DNA from: a virus
DNA: 64,000 nt
Reading direction: 5' to 3' (one strand)
IMG/VR virus record: IMGVR_UViG_3300045988_175328
Location: 1-64,000 of that record
Shown: positions 2,092-62,346 of the stretch, piece after piece
How the letters are laid out: every line of letters begins with the position of its first letter
How positions within the stretch are numbered: position 1 is the stretch's first letter
Notes under the pieces: generated by a model
Seen by the model: the letters and a program-made list of their open reading frames with translations, nothing else
The model's database searches: none
What the model was told of the DNA's origin: nothing
Position numbers and translations under genes: made by a program

Positions 2092-3120
2092 ATGAAAGAA
2101 AATTTAGAAGACTTACTCGGAGCTATATTTGAGAGCGTTGAAGAATCTGGAATTGAAGCTCCGAAAAAAGAAACGAAACCAAAGAAATCTAAAAAGCTTT
2201 GGATGCCTAAAGATATTAAAACATATCTTGATAAATCTGTTGTTAGTCAAGATTTAGCGAAGAAGCTTCTGTCGGTTGGTGTATGTAACCATGAACGAAT
2301 GCTTCAATTTAATGAATCTCGACAAGAAGATGATCCGATTATCGAGAAAGCAAATATCTTAATGGTTGGAACGACTGGTAGCGGTAAAAGTTTCTTACTT
2401 AAAGAGATCGCTAAAATTCTTGATAAACCAATCGTTATCGTATCTGCATCTGGATTAACTAAAACTGGCTATGTTGGTGAAGACGCAACTTCTATCGTTA
2501 ATCGATTATATGAAGTGGCTGGTCGAGACAAAGAACGTGCAGAACAAGGTATTATTTTTATCGATGAGTTCGATAAAATTTCGGCACAAAAGAATAGCAA
2601 TGGTTATCAAGGACAAGATATTGGCGGCCGCGATGTTCAATATGAATTATTAAAAATCATTGAAGGCACACAAGTACCAATTAAATCTAGTTTCGATATG
2701 CTAACGCCTATGGGTATTCAACCAGCCGAGATGATTGATACAAAAAATATTTTATTTATTTGCGGCGGAGCCTTTACTGGTATCGAGAAAAAAATCGAAA
2801 GTCGTATCCGCGGCACTAATGATATGATTTCCTTTAAACAATCGACAAATCTTGTCGAAGAAAAAGAAATCTATTCATATAATAATGTGATTGAACATAT
2901 TTCGACCGATGATTTTAAAGAATTTGGTATTATACCAGAACTTCTTGGTCGATTACCGATTATTTGTCCGTTACGTAATTTAACGATCGAAGATTTAAAA
3001 GATATTCTAACAAAACCTCAACATGCAACCATGAAACAAATTGAAAAATTGGCGTCGATGTACAATGTTAAGTTAGAATATGAAGACGAGTCAATTGAAT
3101 TAATTGCTAAGATAGCTTAT
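2092..3120 (+). CDS. clpX: ClpX-like AAA+ unfoldase, exon 1 (no zinc-binding N-domain)
   Basis: Walker A GTTGSGKS, Walker B IIFIDEFDKI, ELLGRLP motif. The frame hits TGA at 3121, just where ClpX proteins continue into the ...TGARGLRS sensor-2 region. That region is found at 4912 onward. Confidence 0.85.
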
Positions 3121-3611
3121 TGAAATGTCAAAATAATACTTACGATTTTAATCGCGAGATTTATTTTGGCAAACTAGTAAGGATGTTGGGAAACTAGCAT
3201 CTAGTGGCGGATTAAATCCGTCCAACGAAGACACTGAATTGCTGGAAACTCCTAAAGCTCAGAGTGCCAAGCCCCATAAAGGGTTAGGCTACGAAAGTAG
3301 AAACAAACTTTGAGATGGTATATGGTTAAATCCTAAGTACTCTAACAATGGACAATCAGCAGCGAAGCCGGTAGAACTATTTACTAGTACCGGAACGTTC
3401 AACGACTATTCCTCGTGAGGGAAGTACACTACAAGTAATTGGTAGTGGAAGTGGTGTCGCCTAAGTAGTATAGATTTATACTATATGGATAAGATATAGT
3501 CTGTGCCTTGGTGAAAGTCAAGGGTGCGGGTAGTGCCGCCGGTTAGAAAGTAGCGTTTCTAACTGAACGATCATCCTCTCGAATCGTCTTAAACGGTTCT
3601 ATATACTATAC
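3121..3611 (+). ncRNA. group I intron ribozyme core (5' part of the clpX element)
   Basis: P-like AATTGCTGGAAACT 3237-3250, Q-like CAATCAGCAGCG 3353-3364, R-like GTTCAACGACTAT 3397-3409, S-like AAGATATAGTC 3491-3501. These resemble the classical Tetrahymena and phage group I consensus elements. Confidence 0.8.
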
Positions 3612-3770
3612 AAAAACAGCCTACTTTGCTATAATAGTTTTATAAAAACTATTTAGGAAAGGAGGTTTGTCTCAATGATAAGAGCTATTAAACTAAGAGC
3701 TTATTTTACAAAGCATCAAGAAGAGCTAGTTGATAAAAATTTCAACTGTGTATGATTTATCTTTAACTAT

Positions 3771-4766
3771 ATGCTAGATTTAAAATCTAAGCTCTATAAA
3801 AGAACTGGTAAAAATCTTAGTTATAACGAAGCTTGTGCTATTTTAACTAAGCTTAAGTCTAGAAGACCTTGGCTAAAAGAAGATGATGCAGTTGCATTGC
3901 AACAAGTTATCAGAGATTTATTCAGTTCTTATGAAAGATTTTTTAATGGGGCTGGATACCCTAAGTTTAAAAGCTCTCGAGACAAACAATCCTATCGTAC
4001 TAATGTATATTCTTTAGATATTGAGAATAGTACAATTAAAATTCCTAAAGTAGGAGTTGTGAAATTTCGTGACAAATACAAATTTGAAGGTTTAATTCGA
4101 GTTCGAAATGTCACGATTTCAAGATCTAAATCTGGTAAATATTTTGCATCAGTCTGTATCGAAGTAGAAACCACACCTCTTGCGAAAACCAAGAAGAGTT
4201 GTGGTATCGATCTCGGGATAAAAGATTTATGCATATTATCAGATGGAACTAAGTTTGAGAATCCTAGATTTAGAACTTTGCCAGCTGCTAAACGTAGATT
4301 AAGATTTTTGCACAAAGCTTTGTCGCGTAAGGAGAAAGGATCTAAAAGCTGGGAAAGAGCTAGAATCAGACTCGCTAGAGAGTATGAACGTCTAGCTAAC
4401 ATACACTTAGATTATCTTCACAAGCTGACTACTTGGATCATTCAGAATTATGATTTTATATCAGTTGAAACCTTAAAGGTTAAGAACATGCTGAAGAATC
4501 GTAAATTAGCAAGAGCTATTAGCGATGCTGGTTGGTTTGAACTAGTTCGACAATTAGAGTATAAAGCAAATTGGTATGGCAAGCAGTTTGTTAAGATAAG
4601 TACATTTTACGCTTCTAGTCAAATCTGCTCTAGCTGTGGAGATAGAAATTCAGCCGTGAAAAAACTTTCTATTCGCGAATGGGAATGTCCTAGTTGCGGA
4701 GCTTATCATGATCGTGATTTGAACGCAGCGATTAACATTCTGAACGAAGGATTAAAACAAATATAA
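3771..4766 (+). CDS. tnpB: TnpB-like RNA-guided endonuclease (RuvC + zinc ribbon); N-terminus disturbed by an in-frame TGA
   Basis: Ruv[11 protein letters not shown], Ruv[14 protein letters not shown], zinc ribbon CSSCG...CPSCG, Ruv[16 protein letters not shown] stronger start (ATG 3675 behind AAAGGAGG) encodes MIRAIKLRAYFTKHQEELVDKNFNCV in the same frame, but is cut off by TGA at 3753-3755. Confidence 0.85.
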
Positions 4767-4911
4767 ATTTTGTACAGTATATAGAACCGCAGGACATGCG
4801 GGGATAGCCCATGGTATCTGATTTGTCAATGGAAATTGAAACTATGAAGGAGTAAATTCTAAACAATCTTGAATGGGAACCTCGTCACTTATTAGTGAGG
4901 GAGGATGTCAG
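4767..4911 (+). ncRNA. candidate TnpB omega RNA scaffold / right end; also the 3' terminal part of the intron
   Basis: Non-coding tail after tnpB with hairpins CCGCA-GGACA-TGCGG and CCTCgTCACT-TATT-AGTGAgGAGG, ending exactly at the 3' splice site. The 5' limit is uncertain and may lie inside the tnpB 3' end, as in known TnpB omega RNAs. Confidence 0.45.
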
Positions 4912-5082
4912 AATAGGGGTACCGGTGCTCGTGGATTACGAAGTATTGTAAGCTCTATTTTTGACCGAAAAGTCTTCGATATTAATAGCAGAACTAAAGT
5001 CGTTAAAATCACGAAACAGGATATTTTAGAATTATATGCGAAACAATTGGAGGACAGAGACAATGAAACAACAATCATTTGA
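4912..5082 (+). CDS. clpX: ClpX-like unfoldase, exon 2 (sensor-2 / C-terminal helices)
   Basis: NRGTGARGLRSIVSSIFDRKVFDI matches the conserved ClpX TGARGLRSI region. The frame is open only from 4873 and has no independent RBS. Confidence 0.8.
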   Translation, partial: NRGTGARGLRSIVSSIFDRKVFDINSRTKVVKITKQDILELYAKQLEDRDNETTII

Positions 5083-5869: not shown

Positions 5870-5924
5870 GAGCCTTTTATACAATTATTAAATTTTTATT
5901 TTTTACAAAAAGGAGACATTTATT

Positions 5925-6341
5925 ATGTTAAACAAAGTTATTTTCCACGGCAAAATGCCATTATCTGAAAAATTCGTTATCGACTATCGCCCAGGCGAAG
6001 AAGGCGGCAAACGTTCTATGTTCCGCGCAGCTATCGACGTACAACGCGATTATAAAGCGAAAGACGAAAAATATTATCCATCCGATATTTTTAATTTTAC
6101 AGCTTGGGGCCCAACAGCAGATTTCTTACATAAACATGCTGGTCCTGGTACTGAACTTGTATTATGTTGCCGAGCAACTAACGATACATATGAAAAAGAT
6201 GGCAAAATGGTTCGTTCTGTAGGATTTACAGTAGAAACTGCCGATATCGTATGGGCTACTGCTAAATCTGACGGTGAACAACCAGCAGCAGGAGCTAAAG
6301 CAACTGAAGCTACAGGCGATGATTTCGATTTAGGCATCTAA
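5925..6341 (+). CDS. ssb: single-stranded DNA-binding protein (OB fold, acidic C-terminal tip)
   Basis: MLNKVIFHGKM start, FNFTAWGPTADFL and VGFTVETADIVW resemble bacterial SSB strands. Gly/Ala-rich tail ends in DDFDLGI. AAAGGAGA RBS. Confidence 0.7.
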   Translation: MLNKVIFHGKMPLSEKFVIDYRPGEEGGKRSMFRAAIDVQRDYKAKDEKYYPSDIFNFTAWGPTADFLHKHAGPGTELVLCCRATNDTYEKDGKMVRSVGFTVETADIVWATAKSDGEQPAAGAKATEATGDDFDLGI

Positions 6342-6350
6342 ATAAGGATT

Positions 6351-6390
6351 TTGGTACCGGCAGAAATGTCGGTACCAAATTTACTTTTTG
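6351..6390 (+). terminator. rho-independent terminator
   Basis: TTGGTACCG / CGGTACCAA 9-bp stem followed by a T-rich tract. Confidence 0.75.
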
Positions 6391-9456: not shown

Positions 9457-9709
9457 GAAGAAAGCTGTTGTTGTCGAAGAAGTATCGCATACGCTAACCG
9501 ACGAAGAAAAACGCAAACGAATCGATACGATTGCTTCGACAATCATGCAAAAGTCAAATATCGTCATCGGGCGATTAAGTGACGAAAAAGTCAAAGAAAA
9601 ACTTAAGATTGAATTCATCCCGACTCCGTCCGTTAATTTTAATGCAGCAACTGGAGGAGGGTTTCCAAAAGGAAAGATGACAATCTTATCAGGAACAGAA
9701 GATTCGGGT
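9449..9709 (+). CDS. recA: RecA-like recombinase, exon 1 (ends inside Walker A)
   Basis: ...GGGFPKGKMTILSGTEDSG then the frame dies. Joining to 9978 restores GTEDSGKTSL (Walker A GxxxxGKT). Confidence 0.8.
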
Positions 9710-9977
9710 AAGGTATTAAATTGCCCCTATAACTAGTAATAGTTAATAGAAAACTCTGTGATATGCTGGGAAACCGTCTAGGCAATCAGCAGGCAGCGTA
9801 CGTTTAATGTATTGCGCCCCAACGACTATCGAACACAGAATCTAATAAATGTTTTAGAGGATAAGTTAGTAGAGTACATTCGTTACGAATGGAAGCGCAG
9901 AGCATCTCATAACAAGGCTTGAGATGATGATATAGTCTAGTCCCCTAATAAATATCGGGAAACCGAGGGTGTTAACG
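9710..9977 (+). ncRNA. group I intron (ORF-less), recA intron 1
   Basis: Exon ends GGGU and pairs with GCCC at 9723-9726 (P1). P 9763-9775 ATGCTGGGAAACC, Q 9783-9793 CAATCAGCAGG, R 9817-9830 CCCCAACGACTATC, S 9929-9937 GATATAGTC. Last base is G (9977). Confidence 0.8.
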
Positions 9978-10288
9978 AAAACTTCATTAGTTCTTGAAAC
10001 AATTGGTAAATTGCATCGTGAAAATCCAGAAGGACATTTTGCCTTATGGATTGAAAGCGAAGCATCATTATCATTAGATTATTTAATTAACACATTCGGA
10101 ATTGATCCAGAGCGATTCTACTATATTCAGTACGATCGTGAACATGCAGCTGAAGATTGTTTAAATCAAGCCGAGGCTATTATTAATTCTGGTGTTATCG
10201 ATATCTTCTGTATTAATACTTTAAAAGCTCTTGTGCCTAAAAGCGAGATCCTTAAAAGTATGGAAGATGTTAGCGTGGCCTCCGGGTT
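9978..10288 (+). CDS. recA: RecA-like recombinase, exon 2 (3' limit uncertain, 10288-10304)
   Basis: KTSLVLETIGKL...ALWIESEASL...VIDIFCINTLKALVPKSEILKSMEDVSVASG is collinear with RecA GKTTLAL...IDAEHALD...[24 protein letters not shown]. Confidence 0.75.
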
Positions 10289-10656
10289 TTGGAAGGCATA
10301 TTGCGGTGACGCAGTGTGAAAACTTAGTAAATTGCTGGAATATCTTAATAATTTGTTAGCTACAACAGAATCTGTAAAGATAAATGTGAATGCAGTCGAA
10401 AGACAGAAAAAATAACAAATTTGTTGCAAGCTGAAAAAAAGCTTTTTTTAAAGTGCTAAACAACATTAACAATAGACAATCAGCAGCGAAGCCGACAAAG
10501 ATTTGTTGTCGGAACGTTCAGAGACTATCCTATAGCCACACGCTAAAATATAAATATGGCAACAGGAGTAGGGCCACTATGTGGTTGGTGAGATCCCATT
10601 AAATCGAAAAACTAAGCATCTTTTTTAAGATGATGATATAGTCCAAATCAGGCTTG
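10289..10656 (+). ncRNA. group I intron (ORF-less), recA intron 2 (boundaries +/- ~10 nt)
   Basis: P 10329-10341 AAATTGCTGGAAT, Q 10477-10488 CAATCAGCAGCG, R 10516-10530 GTTCAGAGACTATCC, S 10635-10644 GATATAGTCC. In-frame stops on both sides. Confidence 0.75.
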
Positions 10657-11266
10657 ATATTGCCAAGCCCGTCTTAATGCGACTTTTTGCCGGAAGTTCA
10701 TTCCATTAATCGATGAATTTAAAACAGCAATGATCTGCATCCAACATATGACAACCAATATTGGTTCTTTCAGTATGTATGGAGATAATTTAACATTAGC
10801 CGGTGGCAAAGCTATCCGAACAGCAGTAATGCTATGGGTAGACTTACGCAAAGGCTCGATTCTCGATACCGATCCAATTAAACGAGAAGAGGGTATTAAA
10901 GTAAACTGTACTGTACGGAAGAATCACTGTATTCCAGCTGAATTCCCATATCGTAAGTTTAGCTATTATGCCGTTTTCGGTCAAGGTATCGAACAAATTT
11001 TAAGTACTCTCGATGAGCTAGTAACTCAAGGAGTAATTAATAAAGCCGGTGCATGGCTTCAAGAAATTGATTACGAGACTGGTGAGATTCTCGACAAATG
11101 GAATGGTAAGAATGCCTTTCGTCAAGATATGCTAGATCATCCTGAAAAATTAAAACGATATATTGGTTTAATTCAAGGAACCTTTACTCAATTAACTAGC
11201 GAAGAAGTCGCTAAGTTAAAAGAAGAAGAGGCAAAAGGTGTAGAAGATGAACTCGAAGAAGAATAA
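10657..11266 (+). CDS. recA: RecA-like recombinase, exon 3
   Basis: (Y)CQARLNATFCRKF...ICIQHMTTNIGSFSMYGDNLTLAGGKAIRTAVMLWVDLRK is collinear with RecA LQARLMSQALRKL...IFINQ...[24 protein letters not shown]. Confidence 0.8.
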
Positions 11267-49453: not shown

Positions 49454-50575
49454 ATGAATTACAATAATATAACTCCAGAAATGGTTATGTCTATGGATTT
49501 ACAAGAGCTCGTAAAACTTGATTACGCTAAGCTTCCTGAAAAGTCAAAGCTTGCGGTAATTAAAAAAGACCCAGTTATGTGGGCTAAAGCTTTTATTTCT
49601 TCTTATTCAATTGAGCAAGAAGAATATGTTCCATGGACAGCCAGATGGTATCAAGCTGAAATGCTTAGAGATAGGAGTTTACGTAAAGTATATCGATGTG
49701 GTCGTCGGTGTATTGCCGGCGATACATTAATATATGATCCTGAAACTAATAGCTCTATTTCAGCTAAAGAATTGTTCGATACCCGACAGGATGATTTCTT
49801 TACAGTGGCTTGCTTGGATCATGATTTCAAAACAGAGCAGATGCCTCTAGCTAAAATATATGAAAATGGTGTAAAACAAGTATATACAATAACGACAGAA
49901 TACGATAAACAAATTACTGTTACAGAAAATCATCCATTCTTAACACAAGTAGGATGGAAAGAATTAAAACATCTTCGTGTTGGAAATTTAATTGCAGTCA
50001 TTCAAGACGAAGGTATTTTATCAAAGTATGTCGATATCGACAAACAAACAATTGAATTAATACAAAAAGAATTAAATAAAGAAGTAAGTATCGAAAGTTA
50101 TTCAGATCTAATGCTTTATGCAGAAGAGGCTGGACTTGAAACAGTTTACGATATTCTTGATGGCGATTTGGCATGGGAACGAATTAAATCAATTCGATTA
50201 CGTGGCACAGAAATGACATATGATGTGTCCGTACCAGAATATCATAATTTTATTGCGAATGGATTTATCACTCACAATACTGGTAAAACAGAAACAATGG
50301 TTATCGAAGCATTGTACAATTGTTTCACTCGAGATAACTTTGTTCATATGTTTGTAACGCCATACGAAAACCAAGTTCGATTAATTTTCGATAATTTAAA
50401 ATCTAAGATCGATTCCTCGCCAAGGATTCGAACAGCACTCACTCGGTCGACACGGTCGCCGTACGTGATGGAATTTAACAATAAATCAAAAATTGTTGGA
50501 TTTACAACGGGCGCAAGTTCTGGTAGTAGTGCTGCCTCTATCCGCGGATGGCGTAGTGACTGGATCTCACTCGAT
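49454..50575 (+). CDS. terL: terminase large subunit, exon 1 (contains the intein)
   Basis: After intein removal, YRCGRR|TGKTE gives Walker A GRRTGKT. Ends in the Walker B strand IRGWRSDWISLD. Confidence 0.85.
49709..50278 (+). mobile_element. mini-intein (190 aa) inserted in the TerL P-loop
   Basis: Starts CIAGDTLI (block A), TENH (block B-like TxxH), ends FITHN followed by +1 Thr. Too short for a LAGLIDADG or HNH endonuclease domain. Confidence 0.85.
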
Positions 50576-51250
50576 TAAATAATACTATTGTAATAGTTTA
50601 AATAGTCCATTTATTTGGTAACAAGTAAATGTTGAGTTAAATCTCAAGAGTCTATCTAATTGCTGGGAACCCCTAAAGCTTAAAGTGCCTTTGGGCTGCG
50701 AAAGCAGAAATAAATCTTTAAGATGATATATGGTTAAATCCTAAGTATTGTAAACAATGGGCAATCAGCAGCCAAGTTAGTATTATAATTAATATTAAAA
50801 GGTTCAACGACTATCCTGAGAAGGAGTACTATGTAAGCGCATAGGAAATGGTAGAAATCCTACAAAGGATTAAGATATAGTCTATGCTTTATCGAAAGAT
50901 AAAGGTGCGAGTAATGTCGCCGGCTAGAATTAGCGAATCTAGTTGAATTAATATCAGGAAATGGATAATTAAATAATAGTTCATTTAAAACGCCGTTAAA
51001 CAACGAAACTCCTAAGAAGGACAACGATGTACCAAGCTCATTAGTTAATAATGAGTAGTGTTCAACGACTAGGGATGAAATAAGCTCCCCACGAAAGCGG
51101 TGAAACCTACTACAGTCTTATCGTCAAGTTTTATTCTGTAGTACGGAAGACATAGTCTAAACTGGACCAGAACTGACTGGTCGATGAAAATGAAGGTAAC
51201 TTCCAGAGCGCAAGATAAAGAGCTTGCGGTTAATAACAAATTGTATCTAG
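50576..51250 (+). ncRNA. group I intron, terL intron A (boundaries +/- 3 nt), with a second degenerate core in its 3' half
   Basis: P 50658-50670, Q 50761-50773, R 50802-50816, S 50872-50882. The core aligns closely with the clpX intron. A second R-like GTTCAACGACTAG lies at 51060-51072 and a second S-like AAGACATAGTC at 51147-51157. Confidence 0.75.
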
Positions 51251-51379
51251 GTGAAGGTGATTTCGACACAGTATATGCTCTTTGTATGGAACGTGCTAGT
51301 ATCGGAATGACATGTTCATCGACACCAACCGGTAGACGATCTAAGTTTTATGACATTTGTACTCAGAAGAGCCTCGGGT
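51251..51379 (+). CDS. terL: terminase large subunit, exon 2
   Basis: (E)GDFDTVYALCMERASIGMTCSSTPTGRRSKFYDICTQKSLG is collinear with the T4 gp17 region ...ISSGRRSKIIITTTPNGLNHFYDIW. Confidence 0.75.
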
Positions 51380-51622
51380 TAAAAATGGCCCCAATATTAA
51401 GCAATTAATGATTGAAAACCTTTTGAAATGCTGGGACTTCCTTTAAGGAAAATCAGCAGCGAAGCTTCTTAAATTTAAGAAGAACGTTCAACGACTATCC
51501 CATTTGGGAGTAGGGTCAAGCGACTCGAAGCAGAAGGCGTCCTATTGGGACGAAGATATAGTCTGAGCTACATAGAGATATGTAGAAGGTTGCAAGTAGC
51601 GAATGCAATCGTAACAATACTG
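51380..51622 (+). ncRNA. group I intron (ORF-less), terL intron B
   Basis: Exon ends CGGGU and pairs with GCCC at 51388-51391. P 51425-51436, Q 51448-51460, R 51485-51499, S 51553-51563. Last base is G (51622). The splice gives KSLG-F-KEHY, cf. T4 GKSGFEPY. Confidence 0.8.
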
Positions 51623-52119
51623 TTAAAGAGCATTACCATCCCGCACAGCATAGTCCTCTATATTCTCCAGAAATGGAGAAAGAATTCAGGGCGACATTCG
51701 ATAAAAATGCGTATGTACATGAAGTACTTGCAGAATTTGGTATCGAAGAAGCTGGCGTGTTTGATAAAGAAGCTCTCGAAAGAGCGACTCGCATGGACAA
51801 TTATGTCTATAATGACGAGATCAAACCGGTACATAATGAATTTAATTTGCGCTCAGCAAAGAAAATTCACCTTCTTCCAGAAGGACAAACTACATATAAG
51901 TATAACATGTATAGAACTATGGCAGTTGACTGGGATAAATCGCAGGCGCCAACTTCTATACTCGTCTTAGATTATGACCACGAATGGAATAAATTCCGGG
52001 TCATTAATCGAACTATGATCGAGCCATCAGATTTTCATTATGACTTGGCGGTAAAAAAGATCATTAATTTAAATGCTATATATAATCCTACTCATATCTA
52101 TATTGATAGGGGCGCAGGT
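51623..52119 (+). CDS. terL: terminase large subunit, exon 3
   Basis: KEHYHPAQHSPLYSPEMEKEFRATFDKNAYVHEVLAEF...IYIDRGAG. The frame is open only from 51586 and ends at TAA 52123. Confidence 0.75.
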
Positions 52120-52382
52120 AAGTAACTTGCCTCAATATAAAGAAAGCACATATATTTATATTGGATAATGCGGAATTAAGCGAGAACTCTAAGTTAAATA
52201 ATATGAGAACTCGAACCGAAGGCATTGCTAAGTAATGTCAGGGGCAGAGCATAGAAGTTGAAAAGATATAATACTTCCACGAGTCCGCATCACAGTTGTG
52301 CTATTATACTGTGAAAAAATATGCCGAACTTACAGGAAACTATAAGAACTACAAGATAAAAAACTTGTAGGATAACAAATTG
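52120..52382 (+). ncRNA. 263-nt intervening sequence of unclear class, terL intron C
   Basis: Joining 52119 (U) to 52383 (after a G) gives IYIDRGAG|EYQIEAL. It lacks the AATCAGCAG / GTTCAACGACTAT / GATATAGTC set of the other introns. It has ATGCGGA (52168-52174) / TCCGCAT (52284-52290) pairing and several hairpins. Confidence 0.5.
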
Positions 52383-56705: not shown

Positions 56706-57914
56706 ATGCAAATCAAAGAAATACTTGGCTTTAAACCTTCTCAAGAGGAATCATCGAATGAACCGAATGAAACTGTTGAAAAGAAGACTCACGGCATAGT
56801 TGTTGAGATTGAAGCTATTCATTCTGAACCATATGTAACTGGCAACTCTACTATCTATACAGTAAAAGGCATTCAGGAGTCTATTCCTAAATGGACAAAG
56901 CCATATAACATCCCGGTCATCAAACATCATAATGATAGCGATGGCGATATTATTGGTCGCGTTATTGATGCAAAAATTAAAGATAGTGTACTGGTGCCAG
57001 GAACAAAAGCTTTAGTATTAACAGCCGATATTATCGAATCTGAAGCTAAAGAAGGTGTCAGAACAGGTCTACTACAAACAGTAAGCATAGGCGGAAGAAC
57101 TAATGACGTTAGATGTTCTATCTGCGGCGCAGATATGAAAAACGATCCATGCAATCATGTGCGTGGTCAAGTCTATGAAGGTCAAGTTTGTACTTGGATG
57201 ATCAATGATGTAACACCTGATGAGGTTAGTTATGTTATTGTACCATCGGATAAAAACGCTAAGAATATTAAAATACATTACGATGACAGCATTGATGCGA
57301 AAGTATCAGAAAATGCTGGAAATGTGAGGGAAGCTCAAACTGAGCTTCCTGATTTCATTAAAGGAGAAGAAGAAGTTTCAATTTCTGAATCTCAGAAAGA
57401 AGAAACTGAAGCTAATATGGAAAAAGAAACTCAAACACCAGAAGATGTTAAAACAGTTCCAGAAAAAGCAGATGATGTTCAAGTAAAAGAATCTGAACAA
57501 GAACCTGCTATTCAGGAGCCAGGTGTTGCGGGCGAAGAAATTAAATTAAAAGAATCCATTGAAGATTTACTTCAAAAAGTAAATGCTATTTCTATGGAAG
57601 TAATTTCTTTACGTCAAAGCTTAACTCAAGAAGTCTCTGCTGTTAAAGAACAAGCTGAAACTTTAAAAGAAAGCTTAGCGACAACTGATAAAAAAATCGA
57701 AGATTTTAAAACTTCTAGCAAAGCTGAATTAGAAGAAGCAGTAACAACTGTTAAAGAATCTTTGACACAAAAAATTAAAAATACAGAACTCACTAAACAA
57801 GATGTTCCAAATCCAGTTGTTGAAAAACAATCTGAACCGCAAAAACAAGAAGATGTTAAATTACAAGAACAATTGAAGCCTTTATCTGACTTCAGTCGTT
57901 ACTTTCAAAAATAA
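56706..57914 (+). CDS. prohead serine protease (HK97/S78-like) fused to a scaffold-like acidic coiled-coil C-terminus
   Basis: PVIKHHNDSDGDIIGRVI (His) and GLLQTVSIGG (Ser) fit the prohead protease pattern. The C-terminal half is E/K/Q-rich and helical. Confidence 0.55.
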   Translation: MQIKEILGFKPSQEESSNEPNETVEKKTHGIVVEIEAIHSEPYVTGNSTIYTVKGIQESIPKWTKPYNIPVIKHHNDSDGDIIGRVIDAKIKDSVLVPGTKALVLTADIIESEAKEGVRTGLLQTVSIGGRTNDVRCSICGADMKNDPCNHVRGQVYEGQVCTWMINDVTPDEVSYVIVPSDKNAKNIKIHYDDSIDAKVSENAGNVREAQTELPDFIKGEEEVSISESQKEETEANMEKETQTPEDVKTVPEKADDVQVKESEQEPAIQEPGVAGEEIKLKESIEDLLQKVNAISMEVISLRQSLTQEVSAVKEQAETLKESLATTDKKIEDFKTSSKAELEEAVTTVKESLTQKIKNTELTKQDVPNPVVEKQSEPQKQEDVKLQEQLKPLSDFSRYFQK

Positions 57915-58004
57915 GGACTAATTATTAAGTAATTTATTTTATAAATAAAAGCGCAAATAAGTGGACAAATATATATTATATTTCTTGTTTACACTTGCTT
58001 AATA

Positions 58005-58231
58005 ATAGGTTTCGAGCCTTAGTGACTGCTACTATCGAAAGATATGTTGCAGATATGAACTACGTTATGGAAAAGGTTAAAGACACACCTTTAGATGTGC
58101 TCGTCAGTCTGAAGCTCTGTGAATGCCAATCAAGAAACTATGCTAATGTCCTGCATAGATAACAGAGAAACATACATACCCTCCACGACATTGGCAAGAC
58201 GAAAAATGCTCCGAAAGGAAGGTCTCCAGAG
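58005..58231 (+). ncRNA. candidate IscB omega RNA (HEARO-like) scaffold; 5' limit uncertain
   Basis: ~230-nt structured non-coding region directly abutting the iscB start. CTGC..TATC-GAAA-GATA..GCAG, AAGGT/ACCTT, CTATGC/GCATAG nested in the long-range pair TGCCAAT/ATTGGCA, and a terminal CTCC-GAAA-GGAAGG. Confidence 0.55.
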
Positions 58232-59470
58232 ATGGAAAATAAAATTGAATATTGCTTTGTAATTGATAAAGATAACCAACCATTAGCGCCAACAAAAGTG
58301 AATAAGGGATGGTATTTAATTAGAAAAGACAGAGCAAAATTAAAGTCTAAATACCCTATGGTAATTCAATTAAAAAAAAGAGTTAAATTTGATAAAAATG
58401 ACAAAAGTTGCATAGTTTGTGGTATAGATGATGGTTCTGTACATGTTGGATTAGCTATTGTACAAAAATGTTCTACTAAAAATAAGGTAGTATTTAAGGG
58501 AACTATCGAACAACGTCAAGATGTAAAACATAAAATAGATTCTAGACGTGGATATAGACGTTATCATCGTTATCACAAAAGACATAGACAAGCTAGATTT
58601 GATAATCGTTCTTCTTCTAAAAGAATTGGTAGATTGGCTCCAAGTATTAAACAAAAGAAAGATGCTATTTTAAGAGTACTGTATCAATTAAATAAATGGA
58701 TAAACATTAAAGAATATTATCTTGAAGATGTTTGTATAGACATTCGTGCAATGACAGATGGATATAAACCTTATAAATGGCAGTATCAAAAATCTAATCG
58801 TTTGGACGAAAATCTTAGAAAAGCTGCTATTATTCGTGACAATTCCAAATGTCAAGAATGTGGAAAATCTAATTGCATATTAGAAGTACATCATATACGC
58901 GCAAGAAGATATGGTGGAGCAAATACTATTGGAAACTTAATCACGCTTTGTCCTAAATGTCATCAAAAAACAGAAGGTAAGGAACGAGATTTTGAAGATA
59001 AATACTTCAAAATTATTGGTTTTAAACCTAAGCGATTTGATTATGCAATGCATGTTATGCAAGGCAAGAATTATCTCAGAAAGAAAATATCCGAATTAGG
59101 ATTGTTGCATTTAACTAATGGCGGCAAAACTGCGAATAAAAGAATTGAATGGAATATAGAAAAATCTCATAGTAATGATGCGATATGTATTACAAATAAT
59201 ATTCCAGATTCTTGTAATCTAAAAGAATGGATTATTAAGCCAATGCGAAGAAAATCAAAAGCAAAAACTAATAATGTATTAGGAATTAAGCATAGGGATT
59301 TAGTTTCTTATATATATAGAAATGGAGAAGTACATACAGGCTATGTTACGGCTTTATATCCAGAACAGTTAGCTTTAAATTTTCAATCAAAAACTAAACA
59401 TTGCAAAAAAGTAAATGCACGAAAATGTAGATTGCTTTGGCAGTTTAGTAAAATTTATTGGCTAGAATAA
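58232..59470 (+). CDS. iscB: IscB RNA-guided nuclease (PLMP-like N-terminus, split RuvC, bridge helix, HNH)
   Basis: [13 protein letters not shown] (PLMP-type), Ruv[15 protein letters not shown], Arg-rich bridge [22 protein letters not shown], Ruv[39 protein letters not shown], Ruv[13 protein letters not shown]. Confidence 0.85.
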
Positions 59471-59517
59471 TATTATATATATTTAAGAGTATTTTTTTTA
59501 AGGAGATATTGTAAACA

Positions 59518-61113
59518 ATGGCAAATCGTCCATGGGGTTATGGCCCTACAAAATTATCATTAGGTAGTGACGGAAAAGTCTTTAAATCTAATGGCTTCGA
59601 AAGCTTAAATGGCACAGAACGTCGTGTAACTCGTACTGGCGTTCGTTTAAATACTGCTAACCATGATACTTCCAATATTCAATATTGGACAGATTCTCGT
59701 TTGCCAGTATTGTTCCGTTACAACTATGCAGAAATGTACAACCAAATCGTTATTCCAAAAGGACGTATGGTTGCAGTAGATGCTGATGTTAAATCTAAAG
59801 CTGAAAATCCTGAAATTTTCTTAAACGTTTTAACTTTAGCAAATGGTGGATCTCCAGTTCGTTTGCGTAAAATGACTGACGTATATCCAGCAGCCGCTCC
59901 TGATGGTATCGTTTCTGCAGATGGCGCAGCTAAACCTTTAGCTAATACAGACACAGAATGGACTCCAGTAGCTGCTGATGCATATACTGAAAAATATTAT
60001 AAACCATTTGCTAATGGTGGCAATGAAGCTATCATGAAAGCTAATGCATTAGAAAAAGATGAATTCACTGGTTTAGTTAAAAAAGATGGTAAACCAGTTC
60101 TTGATCATCGTGCAGGTAACGTACCAGTAGGTATGTTAGTTCGCAATGAATATACTCGTGATGAAGATGCATTCAATGGCATGATGCCAGGTGCAATTAA
60201 AACTGATATCTTAGTTGAACTTCCTCACTTCTTACATAAAGATAAAGCTGAACTTAACCCATGGGGTTCTGTTTATGGTAAATTAGTTCCTGGCGACTTA
60301 GTAAAATCTGATGAAAATGGTCGTATTGTACGTTCTCCATTATCTGACGAAGCAGAAGTTGCTAAAATGAATATGGTAGAATACCATAATGAATTACGCC
60401 AAGTAATTGGTCAAGTACATGAAGTATCTCCTAACTTAGTTCCAGCTGGTTCTACTAAATGGGCTAAATGGGCTGTTTCTGATATGGAAAACTTTGTAGA
60501 ATATGACAATGGCCAAGGCTATGGTTTCACTAACCGTCGTGGCGAAGATATCTATGATGTTCCAGCTTACTATCGTAGCATGGATGGTTATGAATATAAC
60601 GAATTATATAACGAACATGATTTAAACATGACAGCTGGTAATTCTAAATTAGATGTTTATGATTCTCGTTTTGGTGCTAAATATGAATATCCTGGCATCA
60701 TTGGTTTAACTGATGGTCGCAACGTAGCTAAATCTGAACGCAAAGATGTTGTTTTAGGATTCATGCAAGCAGCAGCTCCTAATCAAGAATATGTTGACTT
60801 TAACTTCCGTGTTCCAGATCGTTTCGTAGAACCTAATACAACTCAAATTTCCTTGGGTGGCGGCGCTTATACTCCATTAACTGTTGGTGCTGTTCTTAAT
60901 AACGCTTTCCAAGTAGTTTACTACAATCATCAAAATGGCTTAATTCGTTTACGTGTTACTGATAAAGCAGCAGCTACTGCAGCTATCGCAGCAGGTAAAG
61001 AAGGTCGTTTAGAAGTTAAAGTATCTTATATGAAAGCAGGTTTAGCTGGCGTTCCTACATTTATGGATTGGGACGGTTGCGTTGGTTCTGCTAAAATTTT
61101 GTTACAAAAATAG
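59518..61113 (+). CDS. abundant virion structural protein (second capsid/decoration candidate)
   Basis: 531-aa ORF with a TAAGGAGA RBS. Codon usage is visibly shifted (CGT, GGT, GCT, TTC, TCC), like the adjacent capsid gene. Confidence 0.4.
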   Translation: MANRPWGYGPTKLSLGSDGKVFKSNGFESLNGTERRVTRTGVRLNTANHDTSNIQYWTDSRLPVLFRYNYAEMYNQIVIPKGRMVAVDADVKSKAENPEIFLNVLTLANGGSPVRLRKMTDVYPAAAPDGIVSADGAAKPLANTDTEWTPVAADAYTEKYYKPFANGGNEAIMKANALEKDEFTGLVKKDGKPVLDHRAGNVPVGMLVRNEYTRDEDAFNGMMPGAIKTDILVELPHFLHKDKAELNPWGSVYGKLVPGDLVKSDENGRIVRSPLSDEAEVAKMNMVEYHNELRQVIGQVHEVSPNLVPAGSTKWAKWAVSDMENFVEYDNGQGYGFTNRRGEDIYDVPAYYRSMDGYEYNELYNEHDLNMTAGNSKLDVYDSRFGAKYEYPGIIGLTDGRNVAKSERKDVVLGFMQAAAPNQEYVDFNFRVPDRFVEPNTTQISLGGGAYTPLTVGAVLNNAFQVVYYNHQNGLIRLRVTDKAAATAAIAAGKEGRLEVKVSYMKAGLAGVPTFMDWDGCVGSAKILLQK

Positions 61114-61128
61114 GAGCTATTTGAGCAA

Positions 61129-62346
61129 GTGAAACTACAAGAATTTATCCAAGACAATTTGGCACAACGAGAAATTGCTCGTAAAGCCGGTTTAGAACAA
61201 AATCTTTCTCCTGAAAAAATCACGGAGTCTTTGAAAAAATATGATATGTTATCTGATGTTGTTGGTAAATTAAACAACATGAGCTTAACAGATAAAAAAT
61301 TTACAATCCGCGAAACTATTAATACAACTGATGTTGTAGATTTAGTACCTCGCATTATCGAAACTAAAATGATGGAAGCTGAAGATGAAGCTTCTATTAT
61401 TTCTCCATTCTTCACAAAAATCCAAGCAGGTAACTCTAATGGTACAGTAGTTGTTCCAATCATCGGCGAATTGCAAGCACATGAAGTTGGTGAAGGTACT
61501 ACATACAATGAAGAGAATGTAGAAATTACAACAATGCAATATACCAACTTGGAAATCCGTCCTAAAAAAATCGGCTTAAAAGTATCTATTACTGAAGAAG
61601 CGATTATGGATTCCTATTGGGATATCTTTGCAGCTAACATTAATAAAATTGGTTCCGCGATGGCTCGTTATAAAGACGAATGGTGTGCTCGTGAATTCTC
61701 TACTCATGGTCATACAGTATTTGATAACAGCTTAGCAGTTCAACAACCTGGTGCAGCTACAAATGGTTTAGGCGAAGACAGCTTACCAAATGGCACATTG
61801 TCTGTTGAAGACTTTATGTCTATGTGCTTATCCTTAATGACTAACGACAAAACTCCAACTGATGTAATCATGCATCCATTGTGTTGGTTAGTATTTGCTC
61901 GTAATGCTATGGTAGGCCAAGGTATGACATTCGGCGCAGCTGGTGCTATGAATGTACATCCATTTGGCGGTACTCAAGGTACTCCAGGTTTTGCTGGTTT
62001 ACAAAATAATATGGGTCCACAAAAATTTGTATTGACTCCAGATCAAGTTAGATTTAACTTGCCAATGCCTATCAATGTATTGTTGAGCCCTCGTGTTAAA
62101 TTCGATAAGAAAAACAAAACATTTGATATGTATGTAATCGATCGCAACAACATTGGTGCTATCGTTCAACGTGAAGATTTGTCCATTGAAAAATGGTCTA
62201 ATCCAGAAACTGACGTTCGTTTCATCAAAGCAAAAGAACGTTATGGTATCGGCATCATGGATAACGGTCGTGGTATTGCAGTAGCTAAAAATATTGCAGC
62301 TCTTCCAAGCTATCCACGCCCAGCAGTTGTTCGTGTTACAGAATAA
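61129..62346 (+). CDS. major capsid protein (HK97-fold type, putative)
   Basis: 405 aa with a helical N-terminal delta-like region. Highly expressed-type codon usage, position after the protease/scaffold gene, strong terminator downstream. Confidence 0.55.
   Translation: MKLQEFIQDNLAQREIARKAGLEQNLSPEKITESLKKYDMLSDVVGKLNNMSLTDKKFTIRETINTTDVVDLVPRIIETKMMEAEDEASIISPFFTKIQAGNSNGTVVVPIIGELQAHEVGEGTTYNEENVEITTMQYTNLEIRPKKIGLKVSITEEAIMDSYWDIFAANINKIGSAMARYKDEWCAREFSTHGHTVFDNSLAVQQPGAATNGLGEDSLPNGTLSVEDFMSMCLSLMTNDKTPTDVIMHPLCWLVFARNAMVGQGMTFGAAGAMNVHPFGGTQGTPGFAGLQNNMGPQKFVLTPDQVRFNLPMPINVLLSPRVKFDKKNKTFDMYVIDRNNIGAIVQREDLSIEKWSNPETDVRFIKAKERYGIGIMDNGRGIAVAKNIAALPSYPRPAVVRVTE

Follow-up and report, generated by a model that had tools for sequence, protein, structure and literature searches.

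We analysed a 64,000-nt stretch of viral DNA (positions 1 to 64,000 of IMG/VR record IMGVR_UViG_3300045988_175328; the window hereafter), in which a gene for the RNA-guided nuclease IscB lies among the head genes of a jumbo phage. The iscB open reading frame (ORF) spans positions 58232-59470 on the + strand, is intact and encodes 412 aa. It is preceded by a 317-nt gap (57915-58231) that starts directly behind a 402-aa upstream gene (stop codon 57912-57914), and followed by a gene for a 531-aa protein (59518-61113) and then by the major capsid gene (61129-62346). Gap and gene together form a non-autonomous IS200/IS605-type (ISC) OMEGA element of ~1,586 bp (57914-59499), in which the RNA scaffold comes first and iscB second. 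A sequence-only reading of the window had called the nuclease free-standing; the label is misleading, since the unit has defined ends and follows the insertion logic of non-autonomous IS200/IS605-type (ISC) elements.

The IscB nuclease and its omega RNA

The 412-aa ORF is an intact IscB that retains all catalytic residues. Pfam detected the RRXRR domain (E = 6e-46, residues 9-187) and an HNH domain (E = 4e-11), and the protein scored 280.6 bits with the NCBIfam equivalog model NF040563 (guided_IscB, "RNA-guided endonuclease IscB"), above its cut-off of 175. Over residues 4-412 it is ~87% identical to "HfmIscB" in PDB entry 9k2z (E = 3.5e-242), while OgeuIscB and the other solved IscBs matched it with E values of ~1e-19 to 1e-20. 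The RuvC residues D66, E165, H313 and D316 and the HNH residues H220/H221 and N235 align with the catalytic positions of OgeuIscB. All six motifs (Table 1) occur in the order given by the sequence-only reading, and none of the catalytic residues, which it had left to careful alignment, is substituted relative to OgeuIscB. D66, H220, N235, H313 and D316 are kept across 17 clade members, with the exception of D66G in the copy L017. We observed substituted catalytic positions in two otherwise intact copies, namely this RuvC D66G and an HNH H221Y in the copy L056; these two IscBs may be natural nickase-like or inactivated variants.

The ratio of nonsynonymous to synonymous substitution rates (dN/dS) of the window iscB was 0.07-0.14 against twelve copies with at least 73% amino-acid identity, and 0.26 and 0.33 against two more distant copies, and the protein is therefore under purifying selection. 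An identical IscB protein occurs on 8 contigs, for which six separate samples are listed, and IMG/VR holds 75 loci with a related IscB, whose full-length copies are 62-88% identical. Judged from its sequence, the window IscB is predicted to be a double-strand DNA nuclease guided by RNA and dependent on a target-adjacent motif (TAM). Type II CRISPR-Cas9 was considered and dismissed: the protein has only 412 aa and aligns with IscB from end to end, and no CRISPR array was found in 52-64 kb of the window, where the neighbours are portal, protease/scaffold-like and capsid genes.

The 317-nt gap is the omega RNA of this IscB, as the sequence-only reading had claimed: it holds both a covarying structure and a match to the HEARO family. 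In the Rfam scan suggested with that reading, the HEARO model (RF02033) matched positions 57984-58209 on the + strand and was covered in full. Place and strand were as expected, but at 27.7 bits the match stayed below the gathering score of 83 (E = 0.0049 when 3.5 kb were searched and 0.09 for the whole window), and the window RNA is best treated as a divergent HEARO relative below Rfam's membership criterion. We then aligned 34 distinct upstream regions of relatives and analysed their covariation. RNAalifold gave 61 pairs on these 34 sequences, 39 of them with compensatory changes. In a 72-pair, 15-helix structure, 97.2% of the cells were paired and both sides changed in 46/72 pairs; none of 500 shuffles scored as high, and slid-partner controls gave 9-15 both-side pairs. 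The helices are intact in the window's own alignment row.

The first covarying helices pair 57915-57919 with 58008-58012 and 57922-57928 with 57999-58005. Further along the RNA, a long-range pair is conserved (GCC 58016-18 with GGC 58193-95) and a terminal hairpin at ~58210-58219 carries the ribosome-binding site (RBS) of iscB, two features that fit the HEARO/omega layout. A multi-hairpin 5' extension of ~95 nt is specific to the window's clade; a shorter 5' stem takes its place in a Staphylococcus phage copy whose left end is clear (L002) and in the IMG/VR copy L069. When the 4.5-kb region was compared with GenBank phages by megablast, only the omega RNA segment was matched and no close phage relative appeared; the match, in phage record MT835474.1, is 86% identical to the window and covers the omega region alone. 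In this record, from a human faecal phage (L001), positions 5920-6370 contain an omega RNA followed by just ~45 N-terminal IscB codons (MTNYAFVLDANNKQLTPTKV...), which represents an orphan omega RNA or else the remains of an element.

These data also bear on whether the gene could encode an ordinary protein-guided HNH homing endonuclease, with the gap as a mere leader. Homologues carry the GenBank label "HNH endonuclease", PHROG families are named alike, and the Rfam match lies under the gathering score. Against this stand the split RuvC with its bridge helix, the score above the IscB equivalog cut-off, the ~87% identity to a structure deposited as IscB and an upstream RNA that covaries across 15 helices. 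The identity to PDB 9k2z, the RNA covariation and the NCBIfam model refute the idea, to which we assign next to no probability.

Insertion between stop codon and ribosome-binding site

We determined the ends of the element by comparing its relatives at different sites. Homology among ~32 different insertion contexts starts abruptly at AGGACTAAT, which corresponds to 57914/57915 in the window, and the flanks upstream of it are unrelated. Since both the onset of homology and the first covarying helix lie at 57914/57915, the gap is scaffold throughout. The guide of characterised IscB elements is provided by the flank immediately 5' of the scaffold (Meers et al., bioRxiv 10.1101/2023.03.14.532601). 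By the same architecture, the guide of the window element would be the last ~16 nt of the flank (GTTACTTTCAAAAATA), which overlap the 3' end and the stop codon of the 402-aa upstream gene. It would thus lie outside the 317-nt gap and not at the 5' end within it, where the sequence-only reading had put it. The sole perfect match of GTTACTTTCAAAAATA in the window is its own site.

The left end N-AGGA-CTAAT is conserved in most contexts. The variants AGAAC, AAAAC, AAGAC and GTGAC have no counterpart at the right junction, and the left and right motifs are therefore a pair of the type formed by a TAM and a transposon-encoded motif (TEM), not a target-site duplication. The right flank reads [ACT]AGG[AG][GA] in 31/32 independent contexts, and copies in bacterial metagenome-assembled genomes (MAGs) follow the same junction rule. 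Homology of the copies runs 29-75 nt past the iscB stop codon and ends a few bases before an AGGAG-type RBS. In the window, the element has entered exactly between the protease/scaffold-like gene's stop codon and the RBS of the next gene, and it is oriented as the phage head genes are. The comparison shows a clade-wide rule: insertion at an AGGAG ribosome-binding site, with the element-encoded AGGAC at the opposite end.

Natural empty sites were available from two empty/occupied pairs among near-identical ~230-kb phages, and they read TAAGGAGG and TAGGAGA. In the pair represented by L013, the empty site is GTATATTATTAAGGAGGCC, the left junction ...TATTAAGGA/CTAATT and the right junction ...TTTTTTA/AAGGAGGCC (slashes mark junctions), and 2/29 loci are occupied. 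In the L004/L056 pair, with 2/31 loci occupied, the empty site TTATTCGATAGGAGAC corresponds to CGATAG/AACTAAT or CGATAAAACTAAT on the left and TTTTATA/TAGGAGAC on the right. The two pairs and the 32 contexts indicate that insertion is precise, leaves no target-site duplication and takes place beside a short conserved motif. For the window itself, the occupied left junction reads ...AAATAAGGACTAATT, and the reconstructed empty site, TTTCAAAAATAAGGAGATATTG, bears a close likeness to the junctions of relatives.

We further retrieved 78 relatives with the downstream 531-aa protein, mostly ~230-kb phages. This protein had no match in Pfam, PHROGs, NCBIfam or the PDB sequences, but it is conserved and syntenic in all 78 related jumbo-phage loci, with 38-66% identity in full-length matches and 66-69% in two truncated ones. 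Homologues of the 402-aa and 531-aa proteins are adjacent in 78/78 relatives and IscB stands between them in none, so that the comparison with insert-lacking relatives, which the sequence-only reading had called for, showed an uninterrupted junction throughout. These junctions resemble ...AAATAA/TAAGGAGC..., that is, TAA followed by TAAGGAG. The insertion between prohead protease and capsid genes described in that reading holds as an insertion into the head block; the protease, however, is putative, named from weak matches, and the capsid gene is the second gene downstream.

The sequence-only reading had also pointed to a 9-nt direct repeat flanking the unit. The 9-mer ATATTATAT is indeed present at 57973-57981 and 59470-59478, but the window contains 7 copies, with 4.07 expected, and 14/100 shuffles reach 7. 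The two copies at the stated positions belong to AT-rich palindromes near the element ends. As a target duplication it was rejected on this count, which is not above chance, and on comparison with the junctions of relatives. The palindromes form an inverted repeat (I6, 57967-57982 with 59469-59484, 94% complementary) and are conserved in relatives. The left one lies in the omega 5' extension as a hairpin that covaries (alignment columns 57-61/66-70), and the palindromes may serve as hairpins that a transposase recognises. In the window the right one is truncated: compared with the closest relatives, the right end lacks ~17 nt, and one arm of the palindrome is lost. We see two possibilities for this shortening: immobilisation of the element, or removal of a hairpin that impedes read-through into the head genes.

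Table 1 Features of the IscB element in the window
Feature	Position	Strand	Basis or remark
Predicted guide segment, GTTACTTTCAAAAATA	~57898-57913	+	Last ~16 nt of flank; published IscB architecture
AGGAC motif, element-encoded, left boundary	57914-57918	+	Conserved across contexts; one base off the target-site AGGAG
Omega RNA scaffold (HEARO-type), ~300 nt	57915-58231	+	HEARO match and covariation
AT-rich palindrome near left end, holds first ATATTATAT	57967-57982		Inverted repeat I6; covarying hairpin
PLMP-type N-terminus of IscB	Residues 17-21		PLAPT
RuvC-I	Residues 64-68		GIDDG; catalytic D66
Arg-rich bridge helix	Residues 105-123		
RuvC-II	Residues 164-167		LEDV; catalytic E165
HNH	Residues 207-210 and 240-243 (CxxC), 220-221 (HH), 235 (N)		
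Zinc-binding Cys	Residues 207, 210, 240, 243		
RuvC-III	Residues 312-317		SHSNDA; catalytic H313 and D316
Right end of element, TATTATATATATTTAAGAGTATTTTTTTT	59471-59499	+	Downstream alignment and context table; boundary from empty/occupied pairs of relatives
AAGGAG flank, RBS of the downstream 531-aa gene (ATG 59518), candidate TAM	59500-59505	+	Contexts and empty sites

Probable RNA-guided homing and competing explanations

Having located the junctions, we consider it probable that the unit works as a non-autonomous OMEGA element whose nuclease cleaves the empty junction under RNA guidance, after which the element is copied in. A scan for promoters and terminators found no omega RNA promoter signal above shuffles and no + strand terminator after iscB; as no promoter signal was found, the omega RNA would be supplied by read-through late mRNA, from which it would be cut out. 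IscB with its omega RNA would cleave the uninterrupted stop-codon/RBS junction, GTTACTTTCAAAAATA followed by AGGAG (predicted target sequence GTTACTTTCAAAAATAAGGAGATATTG), in the genomes of co-infecting sibling phages or in copies from which the element had gone. Repair by recombination with a genome that bears the element would then copy it in, which would amount to homing or retention, and the occupied allele would escape cutting with AGGAC in the place of AGGAG. Jumps to new sites would require a Y1 transposase in trans. For repair, the phage has RecA, SSB, Gam-like and Rad52-like proteins of its own. Both the cleavage of the donor joint by IscB and the TAM/TEM logic are published (10.1101/2023.03.14.532601).

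Several points weigh against this interpretation. The cleavage step is one that we infer. The TAM is deduced from insertion sites, to which selection for non-disruptive insertions in packed operons could contribute, and self-protection would hang on a single base (AGGAC versus AGGAG) unless the TAM is longer. No cognate TnpA was found in the window or within 4-6 kb of ~88 related copies to account for a spread over more than 30 sites, and the right end of the window element is truncated. Moreover, all samples of the exact phage carry the element, no matching empty site was present in the collections searched, and no current target is documented for the window copy. The window is identical to ENA ERZ27276323 contig k141_26322 (227,241 bp) over the 9,239 bp compared, and the same IscB occurs with the same downstream protein in several other ENA/Logan assemblies, always with the element present. 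A 23-mer common to the empty and occupied forms of the window's left junction was absent from the JGI metagenome contigs and GTDB genomes searched.

We also weighed whether the element is a conventional passenger of the cellular insertion sequence (IS) type, moved by a host IS200/IS605 TnpA through peel-and-paste only, with IscB restoring the element after excision and no homing from phage to phage. This is the published model (10.1101/2023.03.14.532601). It accounts for more than 30 insertion sites, which is beyond what homing alone creates, and it agrees with the TAM/TEM-like junctions free of mirrored duplication, the AT-rich palindromes near both ends and the related copies in bacterial chromosomes and MAGs. 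The transposase, however, was not found. None of 53 window ORFs of 100-260 aa matched Y1_Tnp, and tblastn with IS608 TnpA (query sequence checked against PDB) returned nothing from the 64-kb window, in agreement with the absence of TnpA stated in the sequence-only reading. Within 4-6 kb of the ~88 related copies, no TnpA was present save that of an unrelated IS605 in L077, which we rejected as the cognate transposase because the IS605 that encodes it uses a TTGAC TAM and its GC-rich hairpins are unrelated. The truncated right-end palindrome of the window copy also speaks against such a passenger. We regard this account as unlikely, though with a real share of the probability; lytic co-infection would offer a second template for the same cut-and-copy chemistry, and passenger and homing element are not mutually exclusive.

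The phage L077 deserves a separate description. This sister phage of L007 (L077 1136-2858 and 5119-6154) contains a complete IS605 with TnpA and a 441-aa TnpB, whose TAM (TTGAC) and TEM (TTCAC) differ by a single base, and L007 shows the corresponding empty site. In L077, and also in L078, the IscB site has a LAGLIDADG ORF in place of all but the last 84 iscB codons; in L077, one selfish nuclease has displaced another.

The possibility was further considered that the phage has domesticated the system as a fixed-guide weapon directed at the host or at rival phages, with super-infection exclusion as one example, so that it is no longer selfish. Fixation in all samples of the exact phage, a truncated right end that could immobilise the element, the position in a highly expressed late operon and purifying selection on the protein can all be read in this way. 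On the other hand, the guide position is the local flank, as in all other contexts; the guide matches nothing else in the window and differs from the junctions of relatives; and sister phages hold the element at many other sites at low frequency (2/29 and 2/31), as is typical of a selfish element. We find a weapon very improbable. Of the two roles put forward by the sequence-only reading, homing is plausible, while nothing specific pointed to super-infection exclusion.

A decaying relic with no current activity would be consistent with the shortened right end, the lack of a guide target in the collections searched and the decay of related copies, of which L001 retains the RNA and 45 codons and L077 and L078 the last 84 codons. 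The window copy, however, has a full-length ORF with every catalytic residue, an identical protein on 8 contigs with six separate samples listed, a dN/dS of ~0.1 and omega RNA helices that are intact in its own row. Decay is therefore improbable, in our estimate, for this copy.

As a possibility for the clade as a whole, we propose with reservation that the Shine-Dalgarno core AGGAG serves as its TAM and that its guide comes from the final ~16 nt of the gene before the element. The element would thereby slot between stop codon and RBS without breaking the operon, ride on late transcription and spread as an RNA-guided gene drive in co-infection. In the literature searched, we found no description of such a life-style for OMEGA nucleases.

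Relation to known systems and meaning for phage biology

HfmIscB of PDB 9k2z has the same length and domain order as the window IscB, and its omega RNA is presumably of the same type. In the deposited construct, unlike in the window protein, an N-terminal fusion is present and an HNH His is changed to Ala, and a literature search found no paper under the name "HfmIscB".

OgeuIscB and GstIscB are OMEGA systems of IS200/IS605-family ISC elements (10.1101/2023.03.14.532601). They were reportedly described by Altae-Tran in 2021. The window element shares with them the split RuvC, the HNH and the PLMP-type N-terminus, its non-autonomous nature without TnpA, and an omega RNA directly upstream with a guide predicted to derive from the flank. 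It likewise has a candidate TAM next to its far end and, beside the predicted guide, a similar motif of its own, and it resembles them in co-orientation with the upstream gene, a likeness of qualitative use only because our tally came from a heuristic count of flanking ORFs in which some starts, including the window's, were mis-called. There are also differences. Identity to OgeuIscB is ~25-30%, as estimated by eye from an alignment with low bit scores; the window IscB lacks the beta-hairpin REC linker; and its omega RNA has the extra ~95-nt multi-hairpin module at the 5' end and scores far below the HEARO gathering threshold. Its candidate TAM is AGGAG, a ribosome-binding site, in place of an AT-rich pentamer such as TTCAT, and the replicon that hosts the element is a lytic-type jumbo phage, unlike theirs.

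IscB homologues of Staphylococcus Herelleviridae phages, L002 (LC557520.1) and L003 (OP940114.1), are 52-60% identical to the window protein, follow an upstream gap of ~270 nt and are annotated as "HNH endonuclease" or "hypothetical protein" in GenBank. The junctions in Golestan101-M (L002) are of the same kind (TAA/GGACT ... TTTTA/AAAGGGG), while the omega RNAs of the Staphylococcus phages lack the large 5' extension. In Golestan101-M, a TnpB annotated as "transposase" lies 1.4 kb downstream of the IscB homologue. Two contigs of the IscB clade in genome_contigs (L229 and L231), one of them 208 kb long, are binned in MAGs of "uncultured Gemella sp."; this binning of phage contigs is a weak hint that Gemella or relatives are the host of the ~230-kb phage family.

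The arrangement also recalls the free-standing homing endonuclease genes of T-even phages, Seg and Mob, which are known for intronless homing (PMC13565253). There, as here, a nuclease gene lies between conserved phage genes, and the allele without the gene is expected to be cut in co-infection, with the gene being copied in by recombination. Unlike Seg and Mob, the window element is predicted to recognise its target by an RNA guide and a short motif instead of by protein; it also has transposon-like defined ends, and its guide would be reprogrammed automatically at each new site.

TnpB of IStrons and IS605 elements represents a sister family of OMEGA nucleases with the same TAM/TEM logic, and examples are found in window 3139-4915 and in L077. 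TnpB has only RuvC, its guide lies at the 3' end of the RNA and its TAM is 5', unlike in IscB, and an IStron sits inside a group I intron in coding sequence whereas the window IscB sits at an intergenic RBS. In the window, a group I intron at 3139-3523 (Rfam, 74.4 bits) is followed by a TnpB ORF at 3771-4766 (OrfB_IS605 and a Cas12f1-like TNB). Intron and TnpB interrupt a clpX-like AAA gene (2092-3123), whose GTGARGLRSIV motif resumes at ~4916, and clpP (1534-2082) lies just before it. Positions 3139-4915 look like an IStron, and the phage would possess both OMEGA nuclease families.

Further group I introns were detected at 9700-9959, 10272-10666, 50605-50904, 50939-51180, 51370-51585 and 52110-52346, four of them above the Rfam gathering score and two below. 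One intron splits recA into fragments at 9936-10316 and 10658-11263, and three or four are clustered just upstream of the head module. Near this cluster lies a further selfish element, an ORF at 49454-50578 with an intein splicing domain (Pfam Intein_splicing, E = 2e-22).

Earlier work has established IscB/omega systems, the derivation of their guides from the flank and the cleavage of the donor joint (10.1101/2023.03.14.532601; review PMC13565253). The presence of IscB in phages is likewise known, because viral HEARO elements have been published, a structure from this clade has been deposited and IMG/VR contains 75 loci. Virus-borne HEARO/IscB has already been reported by Goltsman et al. 2022 (PMC9755519), who classed more than 16% of HEARO contigs as viral or prophage; as far as the part of that paper available to us goes, it deals with the occurrence of IscB on viral genomes and not with insertion-site logic or a role in phages. 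The RBS target rule, the operon-embedded position in jumbo phages and the natural empty/occupied pairs may be new, and none of them was found in the literature searched.

In the window, a Cas9 ancestor resides in the operon that a jumbo phage expresses most highly, a clean natural case of a kind of gene that many GenBank phage records label just "HNH endonuclease" or "hypothetical protein". The low-frequency copies at other sites, together with matching empty sites, make RNA-guided homing between co-infecting phages directly testable. The RBS target motif would also be a practical detail for the use of this compact 412-aa IscB clade as an editor, and a ribosome-binding site as target motif would explain how these elements colonise tightly packed operons without harm.

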